Shown here piece after piece: positions 13,534-39,042 of a stretch of DNA of 56,176 nucleotides. The notes under the pieces were generated by a model. It searched no databases, was not told where the DNA came from, and saw only the letters and a program-made list of their open reading frames with translations. The stretch comes from Candidatus Nomurabacteria bacterium (GTDB lineage: Bacteria; Patescibacteriota; Minisyncoccia; Phycocordibacterales; UBA9973), in NCBI GenBank assembly GCA_027347985.1, contig DAIEQH010000001.1, positions 1 through 56,176 on the forward strand, in the 5' to 3' direction. Numbering within the stretch: position 1 is the first letter of the stretch; each line of letters begins with the position of its first letter. The position numbers were made by a program, and so were the translations under genes.

Positions 13534-16281
13534 TTATTGCATCGTAGAATACCTTGCCATGATTTCTTTCTCCACTTCTTCTCTATCGCGTCCGTATTTC
13601 ATATAAGAAAGTTGTTTTAGATTATCTACAATTTCCGGATTACCATTTTCCGGTGGCAAAGTTTTTATATTGAAAGGTTTCGTCGGCTGGCCGTGCACAA
13701 GCATACTCATATAGGCATTGTAATTATCAAGTTTGGTAATATCTTGGGCACTAAAGATTGGTTTAAATTTTGGCTCAAGAAAAGTCGCATCATCTGTCCC
13801 CACACGAAAGACAGCCATGGAGCCGACGTTACCAAAAACTGCATTTTTTATATTTTCTTCAAGTTGTGTGATATATTGGTGAGCAATGTTTAAAGATAAT
13901 CTGTATTTACGAGCTTCAGATAAAATAGAAGCAATAGAATCAGTCGTCACATTTTGAAATTCATCTATGTAAAGATAAAAATCATTCATCGGCTTACCAA
14001 ACATGTCTACTCTTGAGAGTGCAGCCATTTGAATCTTGCCGACAAGCACGAGACCAATCAAATTTGCATTGATATCTCCAAGTCGTCCTTTAGAAAGATT
14101 GACTAAAAGTATTTTCTTCTCATCCATTATTTTTCTAAAGTTGAAAACTGAGTTTTGTTGAAGTACGACTGGACGCATTATGTCATTTGAAATAAAATTA
14201 TCAAATTTAGAAGAAATATATGGCACAAAGTTCGCTAGCGATTGATCTCCCGTTGTCTGTTCGGCAGAAACCCAAAATTGTTTGATGATTGGGTTCTTGC
14301 ATTTAGCAATTTTCATATCTCGGAATTCTTTATCCGCTAAAACTCTGGTAATTTCAAGCAAGGTTGAGCCTGATTCCGGGTCTTCCATCACAAGAAAGGC
14401 ACTATTTCTAAAATATTGTTCGAACATTGCTCCGCCTCCGACTTTCATATCAAAAAGTTTATTAAATATGCCCATCATTTCATTAACTACGAAAGTCTTC
14501 TGTTCTGGATATTTTGGGTCATACTCTAGCATGTTAAGCCCCATCGGTCGCATAGTATAAGCTGGGTCAAAATAAATGACATCATCAATACGTTCTTTCG
14601 GAATACGAGAAAGAATAGTTTGAATATCTGTGCCGTGTGGGTCTATATAACAACAGCCATCGCCATTTTTTATATCTTGAGTAATCATATTGAGCATAAT
14701 ATTTGTTTTACCTGTACCCGTCTGACCTATAACATAGAAATGCCTCATTCTGTCTTCTCGTGACAAATGAACTATAGTGTCTTTGCCTCTGTAACTATTC
14801 ACCCCTAAAACAATTCCTTCTTGTCCCATTTCAAGAGGAGCCGGAGCGATGCCAGCTTTTGCTTCTTTCAATTGAGGTTGACTACCGATACCGACTGGGA
14901 AATGAAAAACAGAAGAGAGTTCTTTTAGATTCATCGGCAAAATTTTGTCACTAGAAAATGTACGATAAGAAAAATCATGAAAAAGTTTTCTTAAATCATT
15001 GCCTTTCAATTTTTCAAAAACAAAAGAGTTGCTAGCTGGCTCAGTAAATTGATTGAAGGATGATTCTATCTCTTTTAATATCCCCTCTGCCCTTTCACTC
15101 TCCTCTGCAGAAGTGATGATACGAATATTGGCTTTCATAATGGTGCTTTTCATTTTATTAGCTATTTTTTCTGCTGCTCCTTCGTCCACAGCACGCCTCC
15201 CGGGCATATGTTTGTTTTCACCTTCTTCTTTCTTCTTAGATCCACCTGTAAATGTATCTACCAACTCTCTCCTAAACTTATAAAAACCATCATCAGCATA
15301 TTTGATAGACATTCCTTTTTTGACATCATGCAAAATCGCACTGAATTGATTGATAAATTTCTCTCCAGCAGGCGCCACTACGAGTTGTATAGCTGCTCCT
15401 TCGCCTTGCGTCTTTAATTTTGAAAAAACATTCAAAATAATATTCATTGGGTCGTGATCTATCTGGTCATAAGTCTTTATCGGAAGTACAGAACGTTCCG
15501 TAAAGCTCGCATAAGCACCCGCCGAACCACCACGCTCATTAAAAATATTGTAATCATCTGACACTTCGTGGACTTTCGCATCATGATAAAAAGAAAGCAC
15601 TTGTTTTTCAAAAAGAGAAAGATGTTTGTTTGGTACCCCAGCAAACACGACAACTTGATCGGATGCATTACTGAGCGCCACTTCTAGAGTGAAATAATTT
15701 TCTTTTTCATTATTCTTTCCTTCAGAGATAGATTGCATGCCAGCATAAAATTGCTCCATCGCACCGATAAAATCCTTAAAACCTTTTTGCTTATCTGCTT
15801 CTTCTCTAGGAGGAGGAAGAGTAATTTCAAAAAGAGTCATGTTTAATGATTTATAAAGAGGAGTACCTGTTTTTATATCAAACAACTTTCCACCTTTTAA
15901 GTACTGAATGAGTATTCGATGAAAATCGTCATCTATATGTGGACTATTCATTTTTTCTACGACAGCCAGAGCGTTGCGTACTCCTTTAGTGATGACGATT
16001 CCTAAAAGTTCCTCCATTATATTGTCGTGTGATTCTGGTTTTAATGCGAGAACGATACTTTCTACTTCTTTATTTTTTATAACATTGTCTTTATGTATAA
16101 CTTCTTCAATCGGTTTTTCTTTGTAAGCATTGACAACTTCTTTAACTGCTTTTTCATTTGCATCTTCATGGCCTCTATCAATGAGTTCTTGTTCTTTTCT
16201 TGCAACATGTGCACGCAAATAGTTCAACTCTTCTTCTGGAGTTTTAAATTTTGGAGCTTCATTTAAAAATGCTTCCGCCAT
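13534..16281 (-). CDS. TraD/VirD4/TrwB-type coupling-protein-like NTPase fused to a large N-terminal module (ATPase 1)
   Basis: 915 aa. The C-terminal half has Walker A GQTGTGKT, YIDPHG, Walker B FYLYIDEFQN and EARKYRLSLNIAHQY. The N-terminal ~480 aa include a module homologous to ORF 52235-53530. No TM segment is apparent. Confidence 0.75.
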   Translation of the reverse strand: MAEAFLNEAPKFKTPEEELNYLRAHVARKEQELIDRGHEDANEKAVKEVVNAYKEKPIEEVIHKDNVIKNKEVESIVLALKPESHDNIMEELLGIVITKGVRNALAVVEKMNSPHIDDDFHRILIQYLKGGKLFDIKTGTPLYKSLNMTLFEITLPPPREEADKQKGFKDFIGAMEQFYAGMQSISEGKNNEKENYFTLEVALSNASDQVVVFAGVPNKHLSLFEKQVLSFYHDAKVHEVSDDYNIFNERGGSAGAYASFTERSVLPIKTYDQIDHDPMNIILNVFSKLKTQGEGAAIQLVVAPAGEKFINQFSAILHDVKKGMSIKYADDGFYKFRRELVDTFTGGSKKKEEGENKHMPGRRAVDEGAAEKIANKMKSTIMKANIRIITSAEESERAEGILKEIESSFNQFTEPASNSFVFEKLKGNDLRKLFHDFSYRTFSSDKILPMNLKELSSVFHFPVGIGSQPQLKEAKAGIAPAPLEMGQEGIVLGVNSYRGKDTIVHLSREDRMRHFYVIGQTGTGKTNIMLNMITQDIKNGDGCCYIDPHGTDIQTILSRIPKERIDDVIYFDPAYTMRPMGLNMLEYDPKYPEQKTFVVNEMMGIFNKLFDMKVGGGAMFEQYFRNSAFLVMEDPESGSTLLEITRVLADKEFRDMKIAKCKNPIIKQFWVSAEQTTGDQSLANFVPYISSKFDNFISNDIMRPVVLQQNSVFNFRKIMDEKKILLVNLSKGRLGDINANLIGLVLVGKIQMAALSRVDMFGKPMNDFYLYIDEFQNVTTDSIASILSEARKYRLSLNIAHQYITQLEENIKNAVFGNVGSMAVFRVGTDDATFLEPKFKPIFSAQDITKLDNYNAYMSMLVHGQPTKPFNIKTLPPENGNPEIVDNLKQLSYMKYGRDREEVEKEIMARYSTMQ

Positions 16282-16300
16282 GATTTAATTATATCACAAA

Positions 16301-16395
16301 TAGGCACTAGGCTTTAGGCACTAGGCGCTAGCTTTTTAAAAAGTAAATAAAAAAATAATTAGCTAGTTGCCTAAAGCCTAACGCCTAGAGCCTAG
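16301..16395. repeat. Inverted arrays of TAGGCNN heptamers (site 1)
   Basis: The left arm is taggcac-taggctt-taggcac-taggcgc-tagc. The right arm is ttgccta-aagccta-acgccta-gagccta-g. A 28-nt A/T spacer separates them. The right arm overlaps the last codons and stop of map. Confidence 0.85.
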
Positions 16396-17155
16396 TTAGT
16401 ATTTCTGGCTCACCGTCGGTAATTAAAATAGTATGTTCAAAATGTGCGCTTTTTTTGCCATCAGCAGTACGAAAAGTATATCCATCTTTATCCAAGACAA
16501 CATTTTTCGTCCCATTGTTGAGCATCGGTTCTATTGCTATGACCATACCTCTCACAAGCTTTGCCCCTGTGTTTGCTTTTCCGAAATTTGGTACGTAAGG
16601 GTCTTCATGAATAGCTTTTCCGACACCATGCCCAGAAAGAACTTCCACAATACCGTATCTGTGGGGTCGCACAAAATGCTCTATGGCAGAGCCGATATCC
16701 CCAATCCTATTTCCTCCCATAGCAGCGTTGATACCCACATCTAGGGCCTGTTCTGTCGTTCTAATGAGCTTTGCCGAGGCAGCACTTACTTCTCCGACGG
16801 GTACAGTGAGGGCCATGTCGGTAAAAAGGCCATTATGTTTGAGTCCTAAATCAATGGAAACAATATCCCCTTCTTTCAAAATTCTGTCGGCACTCGGTAT
16901 TCCATGAACCACTTCATTATTTACAGAAACACAAAGAGAAGCTGGATAAGCAAAATCTGCACCTTCTGGTTTGTAATTTAAAAAAGCTGGTTCGTCATCC
17001 ATATCTTTTATCAATTTAAAAGCATAACTATCTAAATCTTTTGTGGAAATGCCGGGCTTCACTATTTCTTTCACTTTGTACAAAACAGTAGCGAGCCTTT
17101 TCCCGCCTTCTCGTAATATTTCTATTTCTTTTGGTGTTTTAATTATTATTGCCAT
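16385..17155 (-). CDS. map: Type I methionine aminopeptidase
   Basis: VVHGIP, DIVSIDLG, GHGVG and the FEHT metal ligands. Confidence 0.93.
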   Translation of the reverse strand: MAIIIKTPKEIEILREGGKRLATVLYKVKEIVKPGISTKDLDSYAFKLIKDMDDEPAFLNYKPEGADFAYPASLCVSVNNEVVHGIPSADRILKEGDIVSIDLGLKHNGLFTDMALTVPVGEVSAASAKLIRTTEQALDVGINAAMGGNRIGDIGSAIEHFVRPHRYGIVEVLSGHGVGKAIHEDPYVPNFGKANTGAKLVRGMVIAIEPMLNNGTKNVVLDKDGYTFRTADGKKSAHFEHTILITDGEPEILTRL

Positions 17156-17232
17156 CCCGATACTAAAATTTTATTAATAATATTTATCTTTATGCCACGT
17201 ACTCAAAAATTTAGTACGGGACAGGTATATTT

Positions 17233-18936
17233 TTAGTAGACTTCCTGATTATAGCATCTCTCACAATAAATAATCTCCGGTCTATCTGGGGAATAAGAAG
17301 TCTCAAACTCATTAGCACATCCTTCCTTCATACAATGTCTATGCCAGAGTTTAAGAGGATTTCTTTGTTTAAGTCTATTATAGTGTCTACAGTTAGGACA
17401 TAAGTGTGGAATGGGTAGATTCATTCTTTTATAGAAGGATAGTTCATCTGGTATGATTTTGAAGGCTTCAGTACATTGTTCATTACATTTACCTTTATGT
17501 TCACATTCTATGACTTTATTGATGATAGAATCATCTACTTCTTTGATGTTATTAGGAATATCTTCATTTTTGATATCTATTTGATAGTTTCTTTCTTCTT
17601 TCTCTTTCCAACTATATCCTTCCTTTAGGGCTTCTTCCTTAGTTAAGGGGAAGTATTCTTGTGCTATGGTTTCATTGTAGGAAAAGGGACTTAATTCAGA
17701 TGGAAAGAACTCTCCATACTTATATATTCTTCCTTTTTTATCCACATAGGGCATATCGTTCATGTGCTCTATGATTTTGGGAACCAAAGCTTCGTATTCT
17801 TCTTTTGTATATTGTTTGTTTAGGATGCAGTATTGCTTGGAGCGGAGACCGATGCAGGCGAAGAGGTCGTGGGACCCCGAGCAAAAATCGGAATAAGTAA
17901 GTTCATTTGAATCTCCACATGTGTTAGAAAACTTCGTTTGATTCGTCTTCCAAAAACCGAGGTATTCATAACAAAGTTCCATAAATTCACAATAGTTTGC
18001 ATCATATACATCTTTCCCATCTATCATTCTAATACAATATTTTTGATCATCACATCTTTTCACATCAAAACATTCATGTACATTTTTTGACTGAATAATA
18101 TTATTTCCAGAAACATTTTTACATTGTAATTCTACAGCAAATTTATGTGGAATGGTTGCTTTAAGTTTCAAAAATTCCTTTTTTATTTTTTCAAGACCTT
18201 CTTTTGTATCTAGTAATAATTTATCTTTTTTATCTAAATATTCTTCTCTTGTATAAGTTTTATTAAAAATATTATATTTCTGTCCACGAAGCCCTACACA
18301 ACCTATACAATCTTGGCAGTTTTTACAATCAAAACAATAGACAAGATCAAGCGAATTTGAACATTCTTGAGAAAAAATAGAATGTGAAAGTTTTTCACAA
18401 TCAATACATTCATAACAATATTCAGATTCCCGAGCAAGATAAGTGTCTACACAATATTTTGATTCATATGGTGAACCATATAAACAATTTTCTACATCAA
18501 TAGAACCGAAGCACAGATAACATGCTTTACCGTCTGCAAAATAATTACAATAATCACAATTTTTTGCATTTGATATAATCAGTGCTGGTCTTGGTGTTTT
18601 ATCTAAAAGTTTTTTAAATTGGGAGAAAAAAGTTTTTTCAAAATCATAATTTATTCTGAAATCTATAGGATTCCATTTATCTCCCCACCAACAATCATGA
18701 CAATAAACTGGGAAAGATTTATCTTTTGAATACATTGAGATAATTTGTTTCTTGCATAATTCACATACACGATGGTATAGGGTCCTTTCATTTCTCGCTG
18801 AAAAACGTCTTTGCAATCTGCATTCCGGACAAAAAGTGGGCGGAGGAACTTTTATCTTTTCATAAAAAGAAAAGTCGTCTGTCTCTATTGTGAAGTCTTT
18901 CTTGCAATTCTGACAAGATTTTATTTCTTTTTGCAT
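17233..18936 (-). CDS. Cys-rich zinc-ribbon-capped protein, paralog 1
   Basis: 567 aa with 42 Cys counted. The N-terminus has CQNCKKDFTIE..FYEKIKVPPPTFCPECR plus CELC-x17-CHDC. There are two copies of the (CxxC)n..LRxKxY(C)IxNKxYTxEEY unit. The C-terminus has LCPNCR plus C-x4-C-x17-CERC. No signal peptide. Confidence 0.7.
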   Translation of the reverse strand: MQKEIKSCQNCKKDFTIETDDFSFYEKIKVPPPTFCPECRLQRRFSARNERTLYHRVCELCKKQIISMYSKDKSFPVYCHDCWWGDKWNPIDFRINYDFEKTFFSQFKKLLDKTPRPALIISNAKNCDYCNYFADGKACYLCFGSIDVENCLYGSPYESKYCVDTYLARESEYCYECIDCEKLSHSIFSQECSNSLDLVYCFDCKNCQDCIGCVGLRGQKYNIFNKTYTREEYLDKKDKLLLDTKEGLEKIKKEFLKLKATIPHKFAVELQCKNVSGNNIIQSKNVHECFDVKRCDDQKYCIRMIDGKDVYDANYCEFMELCYEYLGFWKTNQTKFSNTCGDSNELTYSDFCSGSHDLFACIGLRSKQYCILNKQYTKEEYEALVPKIIEHMNDMPYVDKKGRIYKYGEFFPSELSPFSYNETIAQEYFPLTKEEALKEGYSWKEKEERNYQIDIKNEDIPNNIKEVDDSIINKVIECEHKGKCNEQCTEAFKIIPDELSFYKRMNLPIPHLCPNCRHYNRLKQRNPLKLWHRHCMKEGCANEFETSYSPDRPEIIYCERCYNQEVY

Positions 18937-18960
18937 TTTATTAATTTAATCTAATTTTTT

Positions 18961-18995
18961 ACTAGAGCCTAGTGCCTAAAGCCTAATGCCTAGTC
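18961..18995. repeat. NNGCCTA heptamer array (site 2, single arm)
   Basis: agagcct-agtgcct-aaagcct-aatgcct-ag, abutting and overlapping the dnaJ stop codon. Confidence 0.8.
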
Positions 18996-19882
18996 TATAT
19001 CCCCTCTTTTTTTAGTTCTTCTAGGAGTTCGCGGGCTTTTTTGGAAAGTTTGTTGGGTACTTTTATTTTTACTTTTATATACAAATCTCCGGCTTTACCA
19101 TTTTTTATCGCTTCACCACCTCCCGTCATTCTAATCATTTCTCCATCGTGAATATTTACTGGCACATTTACAGGAATCTCTACTTGTTTACGCAAAACTC
19201 CTTTGCCTTTACAGACATCACATTTTTCTTTTGGTACTTCCCCAGAACCTAAACATTCTTCACAAATTTTGGTACTTGAAATATTTCCTAGAATCGTTCT
19301 TCTCACTTCGCGAATATGCCCTTGACCATTACAATATTTACAAGTTTCCATTTTAGTGCCAGGTTTTGCACCAGAACCATGACAAGTGTTACAACTAGAA
19401 GTTTTAGTAATTGAAATTGTTCTTTCCGTCCCTAAAATTGCTTCCGAAAAAGAAATTTGTATTTCTGTAGAAATGTCTCGTCCGCGTCTTTGTTCACGTC
19501 TGCCTCCACCCATTCCTCCAGTAAAAAAATCACTGAAGATATCGTTTAGATTTCCAAAGTCAAAATCTCCACCATTGCCTCCTTGAAAACCACTAAAATC
19601 CCATTGTCCGCCTCTGGAGGAAAAACCTCCAAAACCGCCTTGAGAAGCTCCGTAGCCACCAGCCCCCATATTTTCAAAATTAGAGCCGTATTGATCGTAT
19701 TTTGCACGTTTAGTGTCATCGGAAAGGACCTGATAAGCCTCGTTTATCTCTTTAAATTTGGCCTCATTACCCTCCTTTTTGTCGGGATGGTACTTCTGGG
19801 CCAATTTGTAAAAAGCCTTCTTAATTTCATCTTTAGAAGCGCCTTTTTCAACACCTAATGTTTTATAATAGTCTTTTTGCAT
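18995..19882 (-). CDS. dnaJ: Chaperone DnaJ, short form
   Basis: J domain [12 protein letters not shown], a G/F-rich linker, and four CxxCxGxG zinc-finger repeats. Only about 70 aa follow the zinc finger (295 aa total). Confidence 0.9.
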
Positions 19883-19895
19883 AAGGTTATTATAC

Positions 19896-19974: not shown

Positions 19975-19978
19975 TTAT

Positions 19979-21469
19979 TTATATCATAGGTTCTGCTTCC
20001 TGAGAAGCCACCTTTTTTGTTTCTGTTTCAGAAGTTTTTTCTTCTCCTTCACTTTTATTTTTCTTCCCTTTTCCTTCAATTATTGCTTTCTCTTCTGCAC
20101 TTCGGATAATCGTTGCCTCTTCTTCTTCAATAAGTTTTTGTGCGTCACCTTTGGAGATTGAATATTTCCTGCGAGATGCATCTAAAATTTCTTGACGATA
20201 TGAAGGATGAGTCGGAGGTAAAACTCTCAAAGATTCTGCAGAAAATGGATCGTAAGATTCTCCGTCAATAGTCATTTTGATATAAAATTCTGCCACAGCC
20301 AAGTTAATCATATCTTTCACACCGAACAGAGGCTCGAATTCTGGTTTTAATTTGACGGCATCTTCTCCACCGACTCTGAAACAAATGAGACTTCCTGTGT
20401 TTCCGAGCACTGCGTGTTGCACTTGTGGAATAAGCTGTCCGATGTACTGGTGCGCTATTGTCAGATTAAGAGCATATTTTCTAGCTTCTGACAAAATGTT
20501 TTCAAATGTTTGAGTGACAATGTTGTGGAACTCGTCTATGTACAAATAAAAGTCTCGACGTTCTGCTTCTGGAATACTTGCACGCTCCATTCCAGCTTGT
20601 TTTATTTTCGTCAAGAACATTGAACCGAAGAAACTTGAATTTTCTTCTCCAATGCGTCCTTTGGAAAGATTAATGAAAATGATTTTCCCTTCATTCATTA
20701 AGTCGCTGATATCTATTTTGTTTTGTTTCTGTCCGAAAATATTTCGGAGCAATGGGTCAGAGAGAAATTGTCCGAGTTTGTTGACTAGCGGAATGATAGC
20801 GTCCGTATCAAACTTCTCGGACCAATCCGCGAATTCAATAGCGAAGAATCTTTTAACCATGTCGTCAGTAATATACTCCACCACTTTCTGTCTGTAATTT
20901 CTGTCCGTCAACATTGAAATCATTCCGCGCATTGTGGCATGAGGATAATCAAGAAGTGCAAGGCAAGTGAAACGGAAAACGTGCTCTAAACGAGGAGTCC
21001 AGTTTGCTCCGAATTGTTTCTGCAAGACTTCGATTAAACCTTGAGTCAATTGAAACTTGAACATAGGATCGACATTCGCAAGCGGATTGAAGGAAGCTGG
21101 AAATTCAACATCTCCCGGGTCTATGACACAAATATCTTCTATGCGCTCTTTCGGAATATAATCAAGCATCGCGTCTATGACATCTCCGTGTGGGTCTATC
21201 AGACAAAGCCCGTGATTGTAAGTGACATCCTGACGGATAAGGAGCTCCAAGAGCTTCGTTTTACCAACGCCAGATTTTCCTACTATATATAGGTGTCTTC
21301 TACGGTCTATGCGTTTAATACCAAAGATAAATTTCTTCTCTTCTAGAGAAGCCACATAATTTGTGCGCCCAATAAAAGAAACCTCCTCAGGTTTAACTTT
21401 TCCAAATACTGGTAATTCTGGTGGAGGTGGTCCATATTTGATTATTTGCACTCGGTTCTGTCTTAACAT
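19979..21469 (-). CDS. TraD/VirD4-like coupling-protein-type NTPase, soluble (ATPase 2)
   Basis: 496 aa. Walker A GKSGVGKT, LIDPHGD, Walker B FYLYIDEFHN and EARKYALNLTIAHQY. The C-terminal tail is acidic/Lys-rich. No TM segment. Confidence 0.75.
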   Translation of the reverse strand: MLRQNRVQIIKYGPPPPELPVFGKVKPEEVSFIGRTNYVASLEEKKFIFGIKRIDRRRHLYIVGKSGVGKTKLLELLIRQDVTYNHGLCLIDPHGDVIDAMLDYIPKERIEDICVIDPGDVEFPASFNPLANVDPMFKFQLTQGLIEVLQKQFGANWTPRLEHVFRFTCLALLDYPHATMRGMISMLTDRNYRQKVVEYITDDMVKRFFAIEFADWSEKFDTDAIIPLVNKLGQFLSDPLLRNIFGQKQNKIDISDLMNEGKIIFINLSKGRIGEENSSFFGSMFLTKIKQAGMERASIPEAERRDFYLYIDEFHNIVTQTFENILSEARKYALNLTIAHQYIGQLIPQVQHAVLGNTGSLICFRVGGEDAVKLKPEFEPLFGVKDMINLAVAEFYIKMTIDGESYDPFSAESLRVLPPTHPSYRQEILDASRRKYSISKGDAQKLIEEEEATIIRSAEEKAIIEGKGKKNKSEGEEKTSETETKKVASQEAEPMI

Positions 21470-21546: not shown

Positions 21547-21548
21547 TT

Positions 21549-27179: not shown

Positions 27180-27836
27180 CTAATTTATTGGGCTAGAAAA
27201 ACACTCAATAGAAAAATACCTTTTATTTTTCAAACACTGAAGTATAACTCCATTATTTTTATTTTCCTTGATTAGTGAATCTAGGTCGTCTTTTCTATAA
27301 TAATCTTTTTGAAGATCATTTGAGTACTTAAGGATTTCTTGTTTGATCTCTATTTCTTTATCTTGTATATCTTCATTTTTTGCATAAGAAAATAGAAAAA
27401 TTCCAGATATTATAAATAAAACTTCTAATAAAATAAAAAATGTTCTCGAGAGTCCTAATTTTTTATTAATTATAAAATCAAATATTGAAACTAAAAAACT
27501 CATAGAACTAAGTAAAATTAAAGTCAGCCCAGTAATAGCATGCCAATCTCTATATGACCTAAAAACTTGAAAATCGATGGAAACAAAAGTAAATAAAGCA
27601 ACAAATATTCCTAATGTTTCAATCACTGATAATTTACTACTTTCTATCTTTTTATCATATTCTAATATTTTTTCATCTATTTTGTCTATTCTACGATTAA
27701 AACCTTCTTCAAAGGACGCTATGTATTTTGTATATCCTTCAATGGTTAAATATTGATGCTGAACAGAAGTATCTTTGGGTACTTCAATTATCTTTGTTTC
27801 TGTCTCCTGAAAATTTTCTTTATTTTCTGATTCCAT
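27180..27836 (-). CDS. Three-TM membrane protein with soluble N- and C-terminal coiled regions (unknown)
   Basis: 218 aa. Hydrophobic segments are LSVIETLGIFVALFTFVSIDF, ITGLTLILLSSMSFLVSIFDFII and FFILLEVLFIISGIFLFSY. Confidence 0.5.
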   Translation of the reverse strand: MESENKENFQETETKIIEVPKDTSVQHQYLTIEGYTKYIASFEEGFNRRIDKIDEKILEYDKKIESSKLSVIETLGIFVALFTFVSIDFQVFRSYRDWHAITGLTLILLSSMSFLVSIFDFIINKKLGLSRTFFILLEVLFIISGIFLFSYAKNEDIQDKEIEIKQEILKYSNDLQKDYYRKDDLDSLIKENKNNGVILQCLKNKRYFSIECFSSPIN

Positions 27837-27841
27837 ATATT

Positions 27842-28474
27842 TTACAAAAGAATTTGTTCTGACTTAGAAATAGCATCTCTAATAAAATTAGTTAAAACCT
27901 TATCTTTAAAAGAATTTTTTGATAAATCTTCTAAAAGAGTATTAATATCTCTCATTATAATAACTCCTTTTTTTTGACTTCCATTTTTTTCATCTTTTAT
28001 AAACCCACTTTCATACATCTGAGAATTATTAACGTTAACTCCAGATAAGTTAATAACCTCATTAAAACGAATTACTATTTGTGTTGGATTGATAGTTGAA
28101 ATCACTTTTTTATCAAAAAGATTTTTTAATTCTTCAATGGTAATTTCTTTAAACGTAGTAGTAACAACACCTATTCTCCCAATTTCAACAGAGAGGCCTG
28201 ACAAAACATTAAGTATATTAGGGAAAAATTTTTCAAAGAAACTTGAATCAGTAGAGAAAAAATCAATTCTATTTATTGCAAGATTTATATCTACACTACT
28301 TGATTTAATAATTAACCTTGGAATTTCAGGCGGCATATTAGCAGGAATTCCTAATTGAGTTACTACACCATCTCCAAATTCTTTTTTTATTAAAAGTGAA
28401 GCTTTTTCAAGTTGATCAGAATAATTTGATTTAAAGAAGAGACTTATTTGCAATTTAATAAATTGTTTTGCCAT
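27842..28474 (-). CDS. Hypothetical protein (210 aa, soluble, no family recognised)
   Basis: ORF only. It is tightly packed, with a 1-nt gap to the upstream gene and a 5-nt gap to the downstream gene. Confidence 0.45.
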   Translation of the reverse strand: MAKQFIKLQISLFFKSNYSDQLEKASLLIKKEFGDGVVTQLGIPANMPPEIPRLIIKSSSVDINLAINRIDFFSTDSSFFEKFFPNILNVLSGLSVEIGRIGVVTTTFKEITIEELKNLFDKKVISTINPTQIVIRFNEVINLSGVNVNNSQMYESGFIKDEKNGSQKKGVIIMRDINTLLEDLSKNSFKDKVLTNFIRDAISKSEQILL

Positions 28475-28475
28475 G

Positions 28476-28757
28476 TTATTTATTATCTCCTGGTTCTTTT
28501 AAATCGGCCATTTGAATGGGACTTTGTATTTGTGGTGGAGTCATATCAATTTCTCCAAATTGTTTCTCGTAGTTTTGAACTTGTCCATTAATCCACATTG
28601 CTATACTTTTCATAACTTGTGGCGTAGTCGCAAAAGAATCAAGACTATTTCCAGAGGTTATGGCAAAAGTAAAAAATTCTTTTCCGTGAGCCCCAAAGGC
28701 ACCATCACAAAACTTTTTTGGTAATTGATTTATGTCTATTTTTGTTGGGTCAATCAT
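28476..28757 (-). CDS. DUF3467-like small protein
   Basis: The C-terminal part TTPQVMKSIAMWINGQVQNYEKQFGEI resembles the DUF3467 signature as I recall it (..P.hAK.l...L...i..YE..FG.I). The start was set at MIDPTK (28757) rather than the track start at 28796. Confidence 0.5.
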   Translation of the reverse strand: MIDPTKIDINQLPKKFCDGAFGAHGKEFFTFAITSGNSLDSFATTPQVMKSIAMWINGQVQNYEKQFGEIDMTPPQIQSPIQMADLKEPGDNK

Positions 28758-28804
28758 ATTTTTATTTTTTCTTATTACTAATAATAAAACTAACAATAAT
28801 TATA

Positions 28805-30712
28805 CTACACTTTAGGAGCTTCCCCTTCTCCTTTTTCGTTTTCCTTGTATTCTGCATCATGAACTTCGGGATTTTGTTCTTCCGGGGCTTGAGCTGGAGG
28901 AGTTTCAGCGCCAGCTTTATTCATTGCTTCACCGATTTTGGACATCTCATTTGAAAGTTCTTCTGTTGCTTTTTTAATAGCTTCAGAATCTGTTCCATCT
29001 TTTACACTTCTTAAAGCAGTTATTTTTGCATTTACATTATCTTTTACATCTGCAGGGATTTTTGCTTCATTATCTTTCAACGCCTTTTCGGCAGTGTAAA
29101 TAATCATCTCTGCAGTATTTTTTATGTCAACAATTTCTCTTTTCTTTTTATCTTCTTCAGCGTGAAGCTCTGCATCTTGTTGCATTTTTTTAATGTCTTC
29201 TTCCTTAAGTCCAGAACTTGCTTCAATTTTAATTGATTGAGCCTTACCTGAAGCTTTATCTTTTGCAGTCACATTCAATATTCCGTTTACATCAATATCA
29301 AATGTCACTTCTACTTGTGGCATACCACGTGGTGCTGGTGGAATTCCATCTAGAATAAAGCGCCCTAGAGATTTATTGTCAGTAGCCATTGGGCGTTCTC
29401 CTTGAACGATATGAATTTCTACAGAAGTCTGATTATCAGCAGCGGTTGAAAATACTTGAGATTTTGAAGCTGGAATAGTTGTGTTTCTATCAATTAATTT
29501 TGTAGCAACTCCCCCTAATGTTTCAATACCAAGAGAAAGTGGAATAACGTCAAGCAATAGTACATCTCGTACATCTCCTGCAAGCACACCTGCTTGTACG
29601 GCTGCACCGAGAGCTACGACTTCATCCGGATTTATAGACATATTAGGAGTTTTACCAAAAAGATTTTTTACAGCTTCTACTATTGCTGGCATTCTTGTTT
29701 GTCCTCCAACCATTATAATTTCATTTATTTCAGCCATCTTAAATGGTGAAGCATCAAGAGCTCTTTTCGTTATTTCAATTGATCTATCTATATATTCTTT
29801 CGCAATAGACTCAAGAGTGGCTCGAGACATTTTCATAAGCAAATGTTTTGGACCACTGGCGTCAGATGTAATAAATGGAATATTTATTTCTGCTTCTAGT
29901 GTTGTAGAAAGTTCATGCTTAGCTTTTTCAGCTGCTTCTTTTAATCTTTGATGTGCTAATGGGTCCTTCCTCACATCTACACCTGATTCTTTTTTATATT
30001 CTTCAGCAATCCAAGAAATTATTTTTCTATCAATATCTCCTCCACCCATGTGAGAGTCACCATCTGTGGACTTAACTTCTATCACATCATCTCCAATTTC
30101 AAGTACAGAAACATCAAAAGTTCCTCCACCGAAATCATAAACAACTATCTTTTCATTTTTCTTTTTATTAAAACCATATGCAAGGGCCGCAGCTGTCGGT
30201 TCATTTATGATTCTTTTTACATCAAGCCCTGCTATCTGTCCTGCATCCTTTGTTGCCTTTCTTTGAGCATCATTAAAATATGCAGGCACGGTGATGACAG
30301 CTTCGGTAATTTTTTCTCCAAGCTTTGCCTCCACATCCGTTTTTATTTTCTGTAAAATCATTGCAGAAATTTCTTCTGGACGATAAAATTTATCTGACAT
30401 TTTTACTTTTACTCCGCCATTGTCTCCTTGTTCAATTTTAAATGGAGCTGTTGCTTTATCTTTCTGTACTTCTGGATCATCAAATCTGTGACCCATATAT
30501 CTTTTTATTTCAGAAATTGTATTCTCAGGATTTGTGACAGCTTGTCTCTTTGCAAGAAGTCCGACGATACGGTCACCATTCTTTGCTGTCGCAACGACAG
30601 AAGGAGTGGTGCGATTACCCTCCACATTTTCAATAATTTTTGGCACGCCTCCTTCAATGAAAGCAACTGCCGAATTTGTTGTACCTAAATCTATACCTAT
30701 TATTTTTGACAT
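28805..30712 (-). CDS. dnaK: Chaperone DnaK (Hsp70)
   Basis: [19 protein letters not shown], and full-length Hsp70 architecture. Confidence 0.97.
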
Positions 30713-30811
30713 ATATTTTATAAGGTTATTTTATAATGTTTAATAATTTTACTAATATTTCGCGACCACTAAAAACTTGTATAAAAGTAGTATATATGAT
30801 AAGCTATATGA

Positions 30812-31363
30812 ATGTCAAGCAAAATAGAATATTCCAATAAAATACTCAAGATTTTGGCAGAAAAACCAGCTATTCCTGTAGATGAAATAAAGAAAAAAAT
30901 TACCACCCCAGACCCCCTCTTCCACAAGGAGGGGGCATATGCCTTAACTCGCTCAATAAAAAATTTGATTGAGTCTGGATGTATTGAAATGATTCAATCT
31001 GACAATAAGAGCTATTTGAAGTTAACCAAAAAAGGAAAAAATAAATTAAACTCCATCAAACTCGAGGGAGATCAAGCACTCGTGTCTAATACTTGGGACG
31101 GTTTGTGGAGAATAATTATTTTAGATATTCCAGAAAACAGAAAAAACGAACGAGAAAGTTTGCGTTATCTTTTAAAGAAAGCTGATTTCGTTTGTATCAA
31201 AAATACTGTTTGGATATCCCCTTTTCCTTACGAACATCTTTTTACAAATATTAAAAAAGATTTAGGTCTCGGTACCGAGCTCATGATTATCGTCACAGAC
31301 AAAATTGACGAAGAAACAAAAAAATATTTTTTAAATAATGTTTTTAAATCCTCCAGCTTGTAA
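30812..31363 (+). CDS. PaaX-family-like winged-helix regulator
   Basis: N-terminal wHTH-like region plus WDGLWRIIILDIPENRKNERESLRYLLKKADFVCIKNTVWISP (PaaX C-domain pattern). It is divergent from dnaK. The 3' end overlaps the convergent ABC gene by 33 nt. Confidence 0.6.
   Translation: MSSKIEYSNKILKILAEKPAIPVDEIKKKITTPDPLFHKEGAYALTRSIKNLIESGCIEMIQSDNKSYLKLTKKGKNKLNSIKLEGDQALVSNTWDGLWRIIILDIPENRKNERESLRYLLKKADFVCIKNTVWISPFPYEHLFTNIKKDLGLGTELMIIVTDKIDEETKKYFLNNVFKSSSL
30903..30935. repeat. GC-rich palindromic mini-element, in frame inside the PaaX-like ORF
   Basis: ccaccccagaccccctcttccacaaggaggggg, encoding TTPDPLFHKEG. Confidence 0.65.
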
Positions 31364-33112
31364 ATCCCAGAGTTTTTTGTAAACTCCATCTTTTTTATTT
31401 GCGAGCTCCTCATGGTTTCCATCTTCCATAATTTTCCCATTTTTTATAACGATGATTCTATCCATTTGCCTTATAGTAGAAAGTCTGTGTGCAATGACTA
31501 TTGTCGTCTTCCCTTTTATAAGTTTGACGAGAGCATCCTGAATCAATGCTTCAGAGTGAGAATCAAGAGAAGATGTCGCTTCATCTAAAATAAGTATTGG
31601 GGCATTTTTAAGAATCGCCCTAGCGATAGCCACACGCTGTCGTTCACCACCTGAAAGTTTTACTCCTCGCTCCCCTACATATGTCTCATATTTTTCTGGC
31701 AATTGGTCTATAAAGTCATCACAGTGAGCTAAGTGGGATGCTACTAATACTTCTTCGTCTGTAGCATCTCTTCTACCATAACGAATATTCTCCATTAAAG
31801 TACGATGAAAAAGTACAGGATCTTGTGGAACGAAAGCAATTTGTTCTCGAAGATTTTCTTGAGAAATTTTGCTGATATCTATTCCGTCAATCATGATTTT
31901 GCCATCAGTAAGATTAAATAACCTCATAAGCAAGCGTACAAAGGTCGTTTTGCCAGAACCAGAAGGACCAACGATAGCTATTTTCTGTCCTGCAGGTATA
32001 ATTAAAGAAAAATTATCTAATATTCTATTGTTATTGTTTTTATAAATATAAGTCACATTATTAAAAGCGACTTCCCCTTTTATATTTTTGGCAATTTCTG
32101 TCGGTTTATCAATAATTTCATATGGCATATCTAAAATAAGAGCCATCTCTTGAGCATCAGCAAAACTCTCATAAAATGCACGAGTAATTGAACCAAAACT
32201 CCAAAGATTTTCAATAAGACGAATTAAATAACTTTGCAACAATACAATAACAGGTAAAGAAATAAGTCCTAACTTCCAATCAGCGAGAGCAATCCAAAAA
32301 ACAATAAATTCAATGGAAAGAGAATAAAAAGATTCAATGGCATTTAAACCTTCCCATAGATACCAATTAAAGGTCGCTATCTTGTTTTGTTTTTCTGTTG
32401 TATATCTAACACGTTCATCTTCTTCCTTTTGACCAGTAAATAACTGAATTGAAGAATGATTACCTATAGAATCAGATAAAACTCCGGTGGTTTCACTATC
32501 ACTTTCCGCTGAAAGAATATCATATTTAAGTTTATATCTTATATAAATAAAAGCTGTTAATATAAATACAACACAAAATATTCCTAAAATATAAGAGTAT
32601 TTTGGAAGTAAAGTATAAATGGCAATAACTGTACCAACACCACGAACAAGAAGTGGTAAGCCATCAAAAATCATTCTATCAGCTAGTTTTTTAAAGGCTA
32701 TTGCATATTTATTTATTTTTCTCACTAATGATCCACCAAAATTATTTACAAAAAAAGAAAAGGAATGGCCTACCATATATGAAAATGCTTGTTGTCTAAG
32801 ACCTGTCATAACGCTCGATTCAAAATATGCGAGAGAAAATCCTGCAATTCTACGAATAGCCCAACGAAAAAGATTTAATACTAAAATAAAAATAATTATT
32901 GATTTTGCTACTCCCACAACTGTAAAATTGTTTGCGCTTAAAGCATTCCAAAGTTTCAAATATTGAAACGGAATATAAACATCAAGAATCGAAGCCACTA
33001 CCGTGGTAATAACAACAGTAAAAAACGACACTTTAAAATGTTTAATAACTTGCCAAAAATATTTAAGCACCAACATACGGTGCAAATTTGAATAATCTTT
33101 TTCTTTGTCCAT
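31331..33112 (-). CDS. ABC exporter, fused permease/ATPase (MsbA-type half transporter)
   Basis: Six-TM N-terminal domain, Walker A GPSGSGKTT, signature LSGGERQRVAIARA, and Walker B ILILDEATSSLD. Confidence 0.9.
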   Translation of the reverse strand: MDKEKDYSNLHRMLVLKYFWQVIKHFKVSFFTVVITTVVASILDVYIPFQYLKLWNALSANNFTVVGVAKSIIIFILVLNLFRWAIRRIAGFSLAYFESSVMTGLRQQAFSYMVGHSFSFFVNNFGGSLVRKINKYAIAFKKLADRMIFDGLPLLVRGVGTVIAIYTLLPKYSYILGIFCVVFILTAFIYIRYKLKYDILSAESDSETTGVLSDSIGNHSSIQLFTGQKEEDERVRYTTEKQNKIATFNWYLWEGLNAIESFYSLSIEFIVFWIALADWKLGLISLPVIVLLQSYLIRLIENLWSFGSITRAFYESFADAQEMALILDMPYEIIDKPTEIAKNIKGEVAFNNVTYIYKNNNNRILDNFSLIIPAGQKIAIVGPSGSGKTTFVRLLMRLFNLTDGKIMIDGIDISKISQENLREQIAFVPQDPVLFHRTLMENIRYGRRDATDEEVLVASHLAHCDDFIDQLPEKYETYVGERGVKLSGGERQRVAIARAILKNAPILILDEATSSLDSHSEALIQDALVKLIKGKTTIVIAHRLSTIRQMDRIIVIKNGKIMEDGNHEELANKKDGVYKKLWDLQAGGFKNII

Positions 33113-33178
33113 ATAAAACCAAAAAATAAGACATTTCTGCCTTGTTTTTACAATACCATATTTTTCTAAAATTACTAA

Positions 33179-34888: not shown

Positions 34889-35001
34889 TTTATTTAAAAT
34901 TCCTCAACCAAAAAATTTTAACTCTAAATTTAATTGTCTGCCAAGCCATAGGCATGACATATCTGATATATTTTATTTTTGTTTTTATTCTTTCCATTTT
35001 A

Positions 35002-36780: not shown

Positions 36781-36821
36781 GTTCTAATGCTTATTTTTGT
36801 CAAAGCCGAGCTTTGACATTT

Positions 36822-38492
36822 TTAGTTGATATTTTGCTTATAACACTCTTCACAAGCTATTTTTTGATATCCCCACTCTGGTAAATAATACGCTTCTATC
36901 TCCTTTTTACAATAAATACATTTATATGCATATGCTTGCAATACTGTTAAATCTTTCAAACTATTTTTTATTCTGACATCAAAATGCAACCTTGGGAGTG
37001 GAATATTATTTTCTTTATAAAAAATAAGTTCATTTTTTGCAATGTTAAAACGCCAGCCAGTTTCTGGGCAAATAAGCGCTTGAGTGATTATTGTATCCGA
37101 TACGTCTTTGATATCATCTGGCAATTCACTCGTTTGCATACCTTCTAAATTTTCTTCAACAATATCTTCCCAATAACCACCGAGTTTTAAGATATCTTCT
37201 TTTCTTGTCCTTGGGAAATAAGTAAAGCTGGTAGAAAAATTAAAAGGCCCAGCACTCATAGAATAAGGCAAAAACTTACCATATTCTCCTCTTTTTCTCA
37301 TGTCTTCAATAATCTTTGTCTTGAGCTTGTCGAAAGATTCTTTGGTGTATTGCTTATTTAAAATACAATATTTTTTCTTTTTTAAACCAACACAACCGAA
37401 ACAATATTCACACTCAATACATAAATCTATATATTCAGAATATCTTGAAGAAGACCAAACCGAATACTTAAGAGAAAAAGCATTTACACAGGCAGCACAA
37501 TTGCCAGATAATTCCATATACCAACAACCATTCGTATCAATGTTAGATTTTTCTTTTATTCCTCTAATACAATTAAAACAATCCTCACTTTCATTTATAG
37601 TATAACAACTATGACAATTCTTACAGTCTAACAAATAATCTCCAGTCGAATCATATATTCTAAAATTAAAGTTTGGTCTATGTATTACTTCTTTTTTTAC
37701 AATCTCTTCAAAGTGCTTCTTGTGATTTTGTATAGATTCATAAGAACCAAGCTTAAACGATTTTAATTTTTCTAAATACTCTTCCCTTTCATACTGAACA
37801 TTCTCTATACAATAGGATTTACCCCTTAAATTCCAACACATAAAACAATTCTGGCAGTTACGACAATCATAAAGAAAATATGAATCTACGCAATCTCGAG
37901 AGTGTTTGGAGTAAAATAGTTTGTAAGAATGATGACAGTCGCCAATTTCATAACATTTTTCTGAAGTAAAGCTGATAACTGCTTCGATAGAATTTTTAAC
38001 TTTCAAATCTCTATAACAATAATATAGGTCTTCACATTCTTCCATTGAGCGTGCTAAATAACAATTTTTAGAATTCCAGACATCATCACACCATTCGCAA
38101 TTTGTATTCTTTATACCATTCTGGTGCGGATGGGGGACTTTTTCTTGAAGCTCTTGAAGTTGTTCAAAAAACGACTTATTTTCATCATAATCTTGACCAT
38201 AATCCATCGCATCCCATTTATCGCTATACCATTCCGTGGAAGTATAAATCGGATAGCGATTTTTCTCTGGCAAAACTGTGATTAAACTTTCTCCCGAAAG
38301 GTCTGATTTACCTTTTCGAAATTTTCCAAACATCCAGAAAGATAAATGTATTTTTACACGACAAAAGAAACATATTACAGGTAATTCTATACCGACTTTT
38401 TCATACAAAGAAAGTTCCCCCTCTGTTATTTCAAAGGAATTATTACAGTGCTCACAAGTTTTACTTTGCTGTTTCATTGTACTCAAAAACAT
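36822..38492 (-). CDS. Cys-rich zinc-ribbon-capped protein, paralog 6 (most divergent)
   Basis: 556 aa. CEHCNNSFEITEGELSLYEK..CFFCR, two YCI(E/L)N.QY units, and C-terminal CIYC-x18-CEEC. An alternative start is M6 at 38477. With either start, the 5' end overlaps the grpE 3' end. Confidence 0.65.
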   Translation of the reverse strand: MFLSTMKQQSKTCEHCNNSFEITEGELSLYEKVGIELPVICFFCRVKIHLSFWMFGKFRKGKSDLSGESLITVLPEKNRYPIYTSTEWYSDKWDAMDYGQDYDENKSFFEQLQELQEKVPHPHQNGIKNTNCEWCDDVWNSKNCYLARSMEECEDLYYCYRDLKVKNSIEAVISFTSEKCYEIGDCHHSYKLFYSKHSRDCVDSYFLYDCRNCQNCFMCWNLRGKSYCIENVQYEREEYLEKLKSFKLGSYESIQNHKKHFEEIVKKEVIHRPNFNFRIYDSTGDYLLDCKNCHSCYTINESEDCFNCIRGIKEKSNIDTNGCWYMELSGNCAACVNAFSLKYSVWSSSRYSEYIDLCIECEYCFGCVGLKKKKYCILNKQYTKESFDKLKTKIIEDMRKRGEYGKFLPYSMSAGPFNFSTSFTYFPRTRKEDILKLGGYWEDIVEENLEGMQTSELPDDIKDVSDTIITQALICPETGWRFNIAKNELIFYKENNIPLPRLHFDVRIKNSLKDLTVLQAYAYKCIYCKKEIEAYYLPEWGYQKIACEECYKQNIN

Positions 38493-39042
38493 TCACTCGG
38501 GCGGCACGGATGACTCTATCGCCCAACTTATAGCCTTTTTGAATAACTTCAGATACTTTATGATTATCTTCTTTTTTGTCAGTTTGCGTCATGTCTATGG
38601 ATTGATGAATGTTCGGATCAAAAACTTCCCCCACCTCCCCTATTTCCTTTACTCCATATTCTTCAAAAATCGTATTGAGTTGAGCATAGATATACTCTAC
38701 ACCCTTGCGCCAATTTTCATCTACCTTTTCCCAAGATTCTTTATTGGCAAAAGCCATATTGAAACTATCAAGTACAGTTAAAAATCTAGTGAGAATACGC
38801 TCACGCATAACTTCTGAAAAATTAGTCCTTCTATCATCCTCTTGTTTTTTATAATTAGCGAAATCTGCTCGCTCTTTTTGCCAACCCGTCAAATATTCTT
38901 CCTTTTCCATTTTGCATGCCTTCAAATCGGCTCTTAATTTTTTGAGAGTCTTTTTAAAGTCTTCTTCACCATCCTCATTAAATTCAAATTCTAAAACTTC
39001 TGACTCAGGCTCAGATTCTTTTTTTACTTCATCATCTTGCAT
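38461..39042 (-). CDS. grpE: Nucleotide exchange factor GrpE
   Basis: Coiled N-terminal region, then FDPNIHQSI and VIQKGYKLGDRVIRAARVNV. Confidence 0.9.
   Translation of the reverse strand: MQDDEVKKESEPESEVLEFEFNEDGEEDFKKTLKKLRADLKACKMEKEEYLTGWQKERADFANYKKQEDDRRTNFSEVMRERILTRFLTVLDSFNMAFANKESWEKVDENWRKGVEYIYAQLNTIFEEYGVKEIGEVGEVFDPNIHQSIDMTQTDKKEDNHKVSEVIQKGYKLGDRVIRAARVNVFEYNETAK

Follow-up and report, generated by a model that had tools for sequence, protein, structure and literature searches.

A lineage-specific module of coupling-protein-like ATPases and cysteine-rich paralogues set among the Hsp70 genes of a Candidatus Nomurabacteria bacterium

The stretch of DNA analysed here (the window; 56,176 nucleotides, contig DAIEQH010000001.1 of a Candidatus Nomurabacteria bacterium) carries grpE, dnaK and dnaJ on one strand, separated by two blocks of genes that encode mainly cysteine-rich proteins (CYS paralogues 1 to 6) and ATPases resembling type IV coupling proteins (T4CPs). 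The region holds a chromosomally fixed, lineage-specific module based on motors derived from type IV secretion systems (T4SSs), all parts of which lie in strings of highly expressed housekeeping genes. This finding is carried by the family membership of the ATPases, a domain that they share with the CYS proteins, a gene fusion, synteny and phylogenetic spread. Tentatively, we favour the reading that the exapted T4SS-type motor handles the CYS proteins as clients, probably as cargo, and is co-expressed with Hsp70.

Coupling-protein-like ATPases

The three ATPases of the window (ATP1, ATP2 and ATP3) belong to the VirD4/TrwB/TraD branch of the FtsK-HerA superfamily. ATP3 matched the Pfam profiles TrwB_AAD_bind (41.7 bits, 9e-11, cut-off 20.5), T4SS-DNA_transf (35.2 bits, 9e-9, cut-off 20.1) and TraG-D_C (28.7 bits, cut-off 22). 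ATP1 and ATP2 matched T4CP profiles likewise, more weakly, and the initial annotation had rightly placed all three in one family, TrwB_AAD_bind, TraG-D_C and DUF87 all scoring above the Pfam cut-offs. The best PDB sequence match of the ATPases was TrwB (1e9r, E 1.3e-6), and the Walker A, Walker B and AHQ residues were invariant. A hydropathy scan detected no transmembrane (TM) segment in any of the three window ATPases or in 135 of the 144 family members. Scores for the curated NCBIfam TraD/VirD4 equivalogs were 43-50 bits against cut-offs of 250-650 (e.g. 47 versus 366), the VirB4_CagE profile gave no match for ATP1 and ATP3 and 22 bits against a cut-off of 643 bits for ATP2, and PADLOC returned only a weak generic P-loop likeness to mad8/HerA.

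Two ortholog types were distinguished, an ATP3-type of ~600-780 aa with a CxxC ribbon and an ATP2-type of ~490 aa without it. The orthologues of ATP3, located after dnaK, were 65-78% identical, and those of ATP2 83-92% identical. The ATP2-type was seen only in CYS-bearing loci, with the exception of L080 (L numbers denote the loci of the surveys described below). Directly 3' of the ATP2-type gene, a gene for CutA1 (divalent-ion tolerance) was present in the CYS arrays of L014, L027 (13285-13593), L039, L044, L093, L095 and L107; CutA1 was not found in the blocks of the window.

The matches to TraD/VirD4 models, together with the weak likeness to mad8/HerA and two IS200-like open reading frames (ORFs) elsewhere in the window, could be taken to mean that the blocks are what is left of a conjugative or defence element with a coupling protein and its cargo. 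Against this, no VirB4, VirB6 or relaxase was found in the window or in 159 loci, integrase and border repeats were likewise absent, and no break in GC content or skew marked the block borders. The genes also hold fixed positions, with orthologues 83-92% conserved across genomes, and a search of 2.9 million viral contigs for CYS proteins yielded one marginal fragment only. We consider such remnants very improbable; a phage or mobile origin was rejected, given the single marginal viral-contig match and the lack of a compositional break.

The CYS family and its shared ribbon

The six Cys-rich ORFs were confirmed by alignment as true paralogues (33-49% identical, 74 invariant columns). CYS proteins had no match in Pfam, NCBIfam or PADLOC and none to an enzyme family, and the PDB sequences offered no more than a weak LIM-like match over the final 40 residues. 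A profile search recovered at least 7,900 clusters at 90% identity, of which the named ones were all labelled 'hypothetical protein'; nearly all came from Paceibacteria, Nomurabacteria or Patescibacteria bins and, judged from these sequences, the family is apparently restricted to Patescibacteria. When 1.84 billion representatives were searched, 5,217 clusters (50% identity) were found at E<=1e-3 and 2,251 at E<=1e-30, and the best 150 matches had a uniform architecture of 444-612 aa from which fusions were absent.

Profile-profile comparisons gave a symmetric plan consisting of ribbons A and B, two Cys-rich modules, an alpha/beta region and ribbons A' and B'. The terminal ribbons correspond to one another (A and A', 2.9e-15; B and B', 1.7e-6), and the two modules, which are solenoid-like, are homologous to each other (E 1.7e-27), each ending in a CxxCxxCxxC...YCILNKQYTKEEY cap followed by a helix. 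CYS paralogue 1 was modelled with AlphaFold2 (AF2) at a mean predicted local distance difference test score (pLDDT) of 81 and a predicted template modelling score (pTM) of 0.81; Foldseek searches of PDB and BFVD with this model returned nothing except small zinc ribbons.

The median Cys content was 35 per protein (6.0% versus a background of 0.6%), and the six window copies contain 218 Cys between them. This 10-fold excess, the invariant CxxC...CxxC ribbons and CxxCxxCxxC cap, and the occurrence of CutA1 directly after the ATP2-type gene in arrays of several lineages would suit an intracellular reservoir of zinc, iron or thiol, loosely metallothionein-like, that Hsp70 and the ATPases load, unload or recycle; these organisms are unable to make amino acids. 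However, many Cys positions in the solenoid modules are exchanged for Ser, Asp or Asn among paralogues, unlike metal ligands, and the large, well-ordered, conserved non-Cys surfaces are not storage-like. Since the need for a coupling-type ATPase would also be left unexplained, a buffer of this kind is improbable.

The ribbon ties the two families together directly at the level of domains. In ATP3 it has the form CxxC-x17-CxxC (aa 448-484) and matched, over aa 448-482, TIGR04272 (49 bits, 3e-13, cut-off 36) and PF23477 zf_Tbcl_2 (45.5 bits, 6e-12, cut-off 27). Among the 1,979 ORFs of the neighbourhoods, a hidden Markov model (HMM) of the ATP3 ribbon matched ATPases and CYS proteins only, and its target in the latter was ribbon B (aa 54-82), which has equal spacing (63 matches, independent E-value ~1e-3 each). 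By these profile scores, the membership of the CYS proteins in the ribbon family appears weaker than that of ATP3.

Where present, CYS orthologues were 66-81% identical between the window and its clade. Only 18 of the 251 CYS genes of the surveyed loci had a window orthologue at >=65% identity, and positional orthology was partial: C6-type orthologues (74-79% identical) lay directly 3' of grpE in L074, L083 and L052, C3-type orthologues (69-75% identical) lay directly 3' of ATP3 in L075, L083, L009 and L003, and C2-type orthologues (71-72% identical) preceded ATP2 in L031 and L029. From these ortholog identities and the partial positional orthology, the family comprises many old paralogue lineages under purifying selection that have been differentially retained. 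No hypervariable region, as a sign of an arms race, was found in CYS proteins. In the largest array, which takes up the whole of a 21.8-kb locus from a single-cell-derived Patescibacteria genome (L016 1-21773), 12 CYS genes follow one another head to tail.

The CYS proteins might instead be stable cytoplasmic zinc-ribbon adaptors or regulators that give the ATPases specificity for other proteins or nucleic acids, much as AAA+ unfoldase adaptors or those of the Dot/Icm coupling complex would do, with different paralogues conferring different specificities. Such a role would agree with the strong purifying selection on the orthologues, which is like that on DnaJ and GrpE, with the absence of a signal-like N-terminus or TM segment from all 257 CYS proteins scanned, with CxxC ribbons common to the cytoplasmic ATP3 tail, with the mildly basic terminal ribbon regions (pI 8.1-9.0) and with the different retention of paralogues between close genomes. 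Candidate genes for third-party substrates linked to the arrays are absent, however, up to 12 copies per array is high for adaptors, the overall pI of ~6.4 is not suggestive of nucleic-acid binding, and the ancestral pair formed by an ATPase and the membrane protein F4 (described below) works without CYS proteins. We hold an adaptor role to be rather doubtful.

Linkage of the ATPase and CYS families

Two neighbourhood surveys were made, one seeded with CYS (79 loci from species-representative genomes, 10 kb each side) and one seeded with the ATPases (80 metagenome loci). Around CYS genes, an ATPase was found in 32 loci, DnaK in 17, DnaJ in 15, a PaaX-like regulator in 10, an ABC exporter in 10 (which makes it an occasional companion of the arrays) and GrpE in seven. 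Sixty CYS clusters had both flanks visible, and in 24 of these (12 of 21 arrays and 12 of 39 singletons) an ATPase lay within two genes, compared with a naive chance of ~1.5% that assumes ~3 ATPase genes in ~800, a copy number in line with the published counts for VirD4-like homologs cited below. The two families are thus linked elsewhere, as the initial annotation had supposed. Arrays flanked by an ATP2-type gene on one side and an ATP3-type gene on the other occurred in at least five contexts unrelated to dnaK, and stand-alone arrays of the form ATP2-CYSx7-ATP3 were found in L063 and L078. The ATPase-seeded loci contained F4 in 44 cases and CYS in 13; the string of the sigma-factor-like gene F10sig, F4 and an ATPase gene was dominant there, usually without CYS. 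The proposal of a single multi-component system consequently stood in part: the families are linked, but the unit is not defined by Hsp70, arrays exist away from dnaK, and F4-ATPase pairs mostly lack CYS.

The split Hsp70 layout in relatives of the window

All 17 sampled loci whose DnaK was 80-94% identical to that of the window shared the split layout, with zero to five CYS copies per block, and the closest relatives of the window ATPase in the ATPase-seeded survey showed the dnaK layout again. The recurrent backbone was grpE-CYSn-(ABC)-PaaX (opposite strand)-dnaK-(small ORFs)-ATP3-CYSn-ATP2-dnaJ-CYS. In the split loci the ATP3-type gene followed dnaK and the ATP2-type gene directly preceded dnaJ, a placement found in 12 cases where 2.9 were expected, and not reached in any of 2000 within-locus shuffles. 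L080 had dnaK-ATP-ATP-dnaJ without CYS, and L086 had grpE-PaaX-dnaK. Window-versus-clade identities were 81-94% for DnaK, 73-86% for GrpE and 60-74% for DnaJ.

The recurrence of this layout in 17 loci rather than in one genome bears out the earlier view that the arrangement is not random accretion, and in every sampled close relative the CYS and ATPase families lie inside the dnaK operon. Contiguous Hsp70 genes in close relatives had been named as grounds for abandoning that view. Contiguity was indeed seen at DnaK identities of 79% or less, but all 17 closer loci are split. In RAAC4_OD1_1 (DnaK 79%) dnaK and dnaJ are contiguous; among the loci at 64-66%, grpE and dnaK are contiguous in two of three, and in the third (L071) dnaK is followed by F10sig-F4-ATP.

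As in the classical hrcA-grpE-dnaK-dnaJ operon, the three genes, all of them bona fide, keep their order on a single strand. The window differs from it in the distances of 7.75 and 8.9 kb between the genes, both confirming the initial annotation, in the lack of hrcA and of its operator CIRCE, and in the divergent PaaX-like gene.

F4, the ATP1 fusion and the Sec context

F4 measures ~450 aa and consists of an N-terminal TM helix and a cytoplasmic DUF8128 domain; in the window genome its gene lies apart from those of the ATPases. The window F4 and ATP1 were tied to PF26449 (DUF8128) through homologues at least 81-94% identical and through an F4 HMM. Of 94 cases across the loci, 36 had F4 directly upstream of the ATPase gene, compared with 11 expected and with none of 2000 shuffles reaching that number, and F10sig, a conserved upstream neighbour, adjoined F4 in 25 cases against 6.2 expected. 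An AF2 model of F4 (pLDDT 79.5) had as its top Foldseek matches exclusively TrwK/VirB4 of plasmid R388 (E 3.5e-4 to 1e-2, probability 0.9-1.0), with TM-scores of only 0.34-0.37.

ATP1 unites the two components in one protein, with DUF8128 at aa ~150-425 and a T4CP-like ATPase at aa ~495-913, which provides a Rosetta-stone tie of DUF8128 to the ATPase. Its N-terminal half is homologous to F4 (BLASTP 6e-9; F4 HMM 2.7e-21), and more than 120 clusters of homologues (81-87% identical, ~920 aa) carry PF26449 together with PF12696/PF10412 (TraG-D_C/TrwB). Its orthologues lie in the string spc operon-secY-adk-(AA kinase)-map-ATP1-ndk-DUF2238-beta-CASP-LDcluster4 and have neither CYS nor dnaJ in the vicinity, so that the position of the window ATP1 beside CYS paralogue 1 and dnaJ represents a local junction. 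ATP1, which the initial annotation had counted among the inserted genes, was accordingly removed from the blocks and seems to be a core housekeeping gene.

In more distant Patescibacteria, the string secD-secF-(F10sig)-F4-ATP was present in at least 24 loci. Loci with secDF, F4 and an ATPase gene include L037, L051, L053, L091 and L109-L158 (e.g. L141 4592-11782), F10sig usually lying between secF and F4. The ATPases next to F4 in loci that lack CYS bore the ribbon in 33 of 39 cases. On this distribution of ribbon and CYS across loci, the ATP3-type and F4 form the older core, to which the ATP2-type and CYS are a later addition.

Synteny of this kind could also arise without functional association, from unrelated housekeeping genes frozen in highly expressed, co-directional super-operons (ribosomal protein, sec and Hsp70) of a clade whose gene order changes very little. 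The minus strand of the window is almost entirely one co-directional housekeeping run from ~54 kb to 12 kb; the split layout is confined to loci with DnaK identities >=80%, which is compatible with a single ancestral event; heterogeneous genes (F10sig, mnmA, yceG and rsmE) occur in the same strings; and the adjacency of ATPase and CYS genes within loci was not significant. Frozen synteny does not account, however, for the restriction of the shared ribbon to ATPases and CYS proteins, for the rebuilding of the ATP2...CYS array...ATP3 sandwich in several genomic contexts and orders, for the DUF8128-ATPase fusion, or for the presence of the ATP2-type essentially only alongside CYS. We judge this explanation unlikely.

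The dnaK promoter and transcription units

The best promoter-like site of the region, TTGACA-N18-TATACT, of sigma-70 type, lies in the gap between dnaK and the divergent PaaX-like gene (30713-30818). It is accompanied by a near-palindromic candidate operator, ACAAGT(A/T)TTTAGTG..CACTAAA(T/A)ACTTGT, which is unique in the window (0 expected by chance) and forms a perfect palindrome in L050 and L031. The divergent PaaX-dnaK pair was found in 15 loci, and promoter and operator were kept in most of the PaaX-dnaK loci aligned, though they were not seen in L075 or in the partial extract of L083. The loci with a conserved promoter and palindrome are L011, L031, L040, L048-L050, L060, L062, L074, L085, L086 and L105. 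A further strong promoter-like site precedes ATP3 (27169-27141). Scans for consensus promoters and terminators were at chance level overall, and only promoter and operator sites backed by conservation were used; no convincing intrinsic terminator was found between same-strand genes.

Given the opposite-strand PaaX-like gene and the conserved promoter and operator, dnaK opens its own regulated unit and there are at least two transcription units, which makes the suggested co-transcription of the whole region as one unit unlikely. The block of grpE, CYS and ABC genes belongs to the upstream ribosomal protein run. HrcA had no match among the scanned window ORFs and the dnaK palindrome differs from CIRCE. 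The PaaX-like protein probably represses the dnaK unit, and it may be the heat-shock repressor of the clade.

Gene content of the window

ORF calls and Pfam scans reproduced the gene order and coordinates of the initial annotation (Table 1), the minus-strand order being rpsM-rpsK-rpsD-rpoA-rplQ-rplM-rpsI-grpE-Cys6-Cys5-Cys4-ABC-dnaK-three small ORFs-ATP3-Cys3-Cys2-ATP2-dnaJ-Cys1-map-ATP1-ndk. The PaaX-like ORF was likewise confirmed as the sole plus-strand gene within the rpsI-ndk block. Gaps are 1-113 nt, most of them below 80 nt, and the overlap of grpE and Cys6 is real (32 nt, or 17 nt if Cys6 begins at Met6, the start that aligns with the other CYS paralogues). In CYS paralogue 4, zinc ribbons 2 and 3 are degenerate.

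Table 1. Coordinates of the features discussed; positions are those of the window unless a locus is named
Feature	Position	Strand	Evidence or remarks
F10sig, sigma-70 region 4 + HARE-HTH	53623-54651	-	Pfam; adjoins F4
F4, N-terminal TM helix + cytoplasmic DUF8128 domain	52235-53530	-	PF26449 on homologues
rpsI (S9)	39184-39627	-	Pfam
grpE	38461-39042	-	Pfam GrpE E 9e-38, 130 bits; 3' of rpsI
CYS paralogue 6, 556 aa	36822-38492	-	Paralogue alignment; likely true start Met6 at 38477
CYS paralogue 5, 592 aa	35002-36780	-	Orthologues in L074, L079 67-69% identical
CYS paralogue 4, 569 aa	33179-34888	-	L075 orthologue 81% identical
MsbA-like ABC half-transporter, exporter type	31331-33112	-	Pfam ABC_membrane + ABC_tran
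PaaX-like winged helix-turn-helix regulator	30812-31363	+	PaaX_M E 1.4e-18; divergent from dnaK
dnaK promoter TTGACA-N18-TATACT	30818-30789	-	Best promoter-like site in region; PaaX/dnaK divergent gap
Near-palindromic candidate operator	30751-30780	-	Conservation
dnaK	28805-30712	-	Pfam HSP70 E 3e-244, 812 bits
Three non-conserved ORFs: 106 aa, 210 aa, 218 aa with 3 TM segments	27180-28796	-	
ATP3, soluble T4CP-like ATPase with C-terminal ribbon + K/E-rich tail	25046-27130	-	
CYS paralogue 3, 583 aa	23278-25029	-	
CYS paralogue 2, 561 aa	21549-23234	-	
ATP2, short soluble T4CP-like ATPase without ribbon	19979-21469	-	Pfam
dnaJ	18995-19882	-	DnaJ J domain 2e-25, DnaJ_CXXCXGXG 7e-16, DnaJ_C 6e-13
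CYS paralogue 1, 567 aa, 42 Cys	17233-18936	-	Structure-modelled member
map	16385-17155	-	Pfam
ATP1, DUF8128 + T4CP-like ATPase fusion	13534-16281	-	
ndk	12877-13461	-	Pfam NDK
ATP1 orthologues in secY-adk-map string	L160 10001-12760; L161 10001-12775		

The three ORFs between dnaK and ATP3 had been listed as parts of the system. Family searches with them gave no significant match, and the label 'DUF3467-like' rested on a sub-threshold match (23 bits versus a Pfam cut-off of 25). Only the 106-aa ORF recurs, in two loci (L085 and L086), while other loci have unrelated small ORFs or none there. The differing contents of the slot were seen in L048, L049, L060, L062, L085 and L086. The three were therefore dropped from the system as not conserved and, since its small ORFs differ among genomes, the slot is regarded as a variable insertion spot. 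For the ABC exporter the best NCBIfam match was MsbA, below its cut-off; a special subtype (peptidase-containing, CydDC or ATM-like) was rejected, the generic MsbA-like match being the only one.

Several observations concern other parts of the window. In the ndk ORF (194 aa) the best NDK stretch covers only aa 99-184 and a second stretch also matches, so that either the start has been called wrongly or the protein carries an N-terminal extension. Two adjacent ORFs (438 and 391 aa; families f29 and f30) without a Pfam match lie at 44613-47114 (-) and are kept upstream of rpsM in at least five other loci, where secY, adk and map usually sit. The two IS200-like Y1 transposase ORFs are at 3885-4580 (-) and 43824-44576 (+), the latter, opposite in strand, separating the f30 gene from rpsM and lying next to a hairpin with a 15-bp stem (43476-43510).

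Discussion

The ATPases share with the T4CPs VirD4, TrwB and TraD a nucleotide-binding domain, an all-alpha domain and intact Walker motifs. They differ from them in lacking an N-terminal TM anchor, in the C-terminal ribbon borne by ATP3, and in being embedded in Hsp70, sec and ribosomal protein operons and as conserved as DnaK. Without the TM anchor, the T4SS or relaxase context and matches to VirB4 profiles, these proteins, which probably work like T4CPs, fall outside the ordinary membership of that family. Genomes of the candidate phyla radiation (CPR) contain 5,713 VirD4-like homologs in 2,918 genomes, about two per genome, of which 148 are near virB4, and exaptation of these homologs 'cannot be ruled out' (Quinonero-Coronel et al., bioRxiv 10.1101/2025.01.22.634366). 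The window-type ATPases are almost certainly the same proteins as these orphans. No partners or context were given for the orphans in that work, whereas here they are tied to DUF8128/F4, CYS, dnaK/dnaJ, secDF and secY. For the genuine CPR T4SS the locus is another than that of the ATPase-CYS module, being close to dnaA, dnaN and rnpA.

Other known systems offer partial parallels. In its modelled structure F4 resembles VirB3-VirB4 (TrwM-TrwK of R388), with a TM anchor and a domain predicted to be like the N-terminal domain (NTD) of VirB4, and the order in ATP1, DUF8128 and then the ATPase, may correspond to that of VirB4, NTD and then ATPase. The TM-scores are low, however, the profiles matched by the ATPase domains are those of VirD4/TraD and not of VirB4, and in most cases two genes encode the NTD and the ATPase. 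In type VII secretion systems (T7SSs; EssC/EccC with Esx/LXG arrays) and in Dot/Icm, FtsK/HerA ATPases lie beside tandem paralogous proteins that have terminal signals and no Sec signal. The placing of an ATPase beside arrays of paralogous, non-enzymatic CYS proteins without Sec signals might be likened to these systems, as an analogy only; the CYS proteins are not homologous to known substrates, and the membrane components of T7SS and Dot/Icm are absent.

The statement in the initial annotation that no system of such composition has been described agrees with the literature found, which mentions only the CPR VirD4-like homologs, mostly far from virB4 and perhaps exapted. Searches for the CYS family, TIGR04272, PF26449/DUF8128 and CPR zinc ribbons gave nothing relevant beyond the CPR T4SS papers. 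The CYS family, the ATPase-CYS arrays, the DUF8128-ATPase link and the embedding in Hsp70 genes appear to be undescribed.

For the working of the module we infer metal binding by the CYS proteins, ring formation, client recognition, the direction of transport and the role of the chaperones. By analogy with T4CPs, the ATP2- and ATP3-type ATPases would form hexameric rings, and the ATP3-type, as the ancestral member, would work with the membrane-anchored DUF8128 protein F4. In part of the Paceibacteria, this motor has gained the ATP2-type paralogue and a CYS family evolving by birth and death. The CYS proteins would be its dedicated clients, recognised through their ribbon pairs, one type of which is the same as the ATP3 tail domain, and ATP hydrolysis would thread or translocate them, probably towards or across the membrane. 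In the clade of the window the module was inserted between grpE, dnaK and dnaJ and, because of this insertion, the chaperone triad would be made together with hard-to-fold clients of ~35 Cys, which Hsp70, under the PaaX-like repressor, could keep competent for handling. The secD-secF strings, the position of ATP1 after secY-adk-map and the ABC exporter in some arrays hint at a membrane or export role.

Several findings weigh against this client-handling reading. The adjacency of ATPase and CYS genes did not differ significantly from a within-locus label shuffle (33 versus 29). This outcome is attributed to the density of CYS genes in the loci, and for the linkage we consequently rely on how often ATPases flank CYS genes, on the return of the arrangement in different contexts and on the domain that both families have in common. 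In addition, 60% of the complete CYS clusters have no ATPase within two genes, and most ATPase-seeded loci carry F4 and no CYS, which indicates a CYS-independent role of the motor. The CYS proteins are conserved like DnaJ and GrpE with no hypervariable region, lack signal peptides, bear CxxC ribbons of the kind usual in cytoplasmic proteins and, in half of the cases, contain an odd number of Cys; such conservation and ribbons, without a signal, are atypical of secreted host-interaction proteins. The T4SS channel genes virB4 and virB6 are not found nearby. Finally, gene order in small genomes is generally sticky, and synteny for this reason overstates functional linkage. The more specific proposal of a T4SS-derived but channel-independent export in Paceibacteria, in which the DUF8128 anchor and the ATPases, linked in the genome to secDF and secY, would send signal-less CYS proteins held by Hsp70 to the surface for host attachment or manipulation, is a doubtful one.

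The thousands of orphan VirD4-like ATPases of CPR genomes gain concrete partners from these results, namely DUF8128/F4, the CYS family and Hsp70, and a testable role is offered for the uncharacterised CYS family of 5,000 clusters. As a side outcome, a candidate heat-shock repressor other than HrcA and its operator have come to light. Both protein families match DnaK in conservation and form part of Hsp70, ribosomal and Sec operons, and CYS arrays alone occupy 20 kb in some genomes, of a size taken to be under 1 Mb. Should CYS proteins be exported, the module would add a new route of secretion that bears on episymbiosis; otherwise it would represent a novel kind of housekeeping machine made of ATPases and zinc proteins. 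Patescibacteria represent a large share of bacterial diversity whose biology has mostly been inferred from absences, and the module is a positive feature of these organisms.

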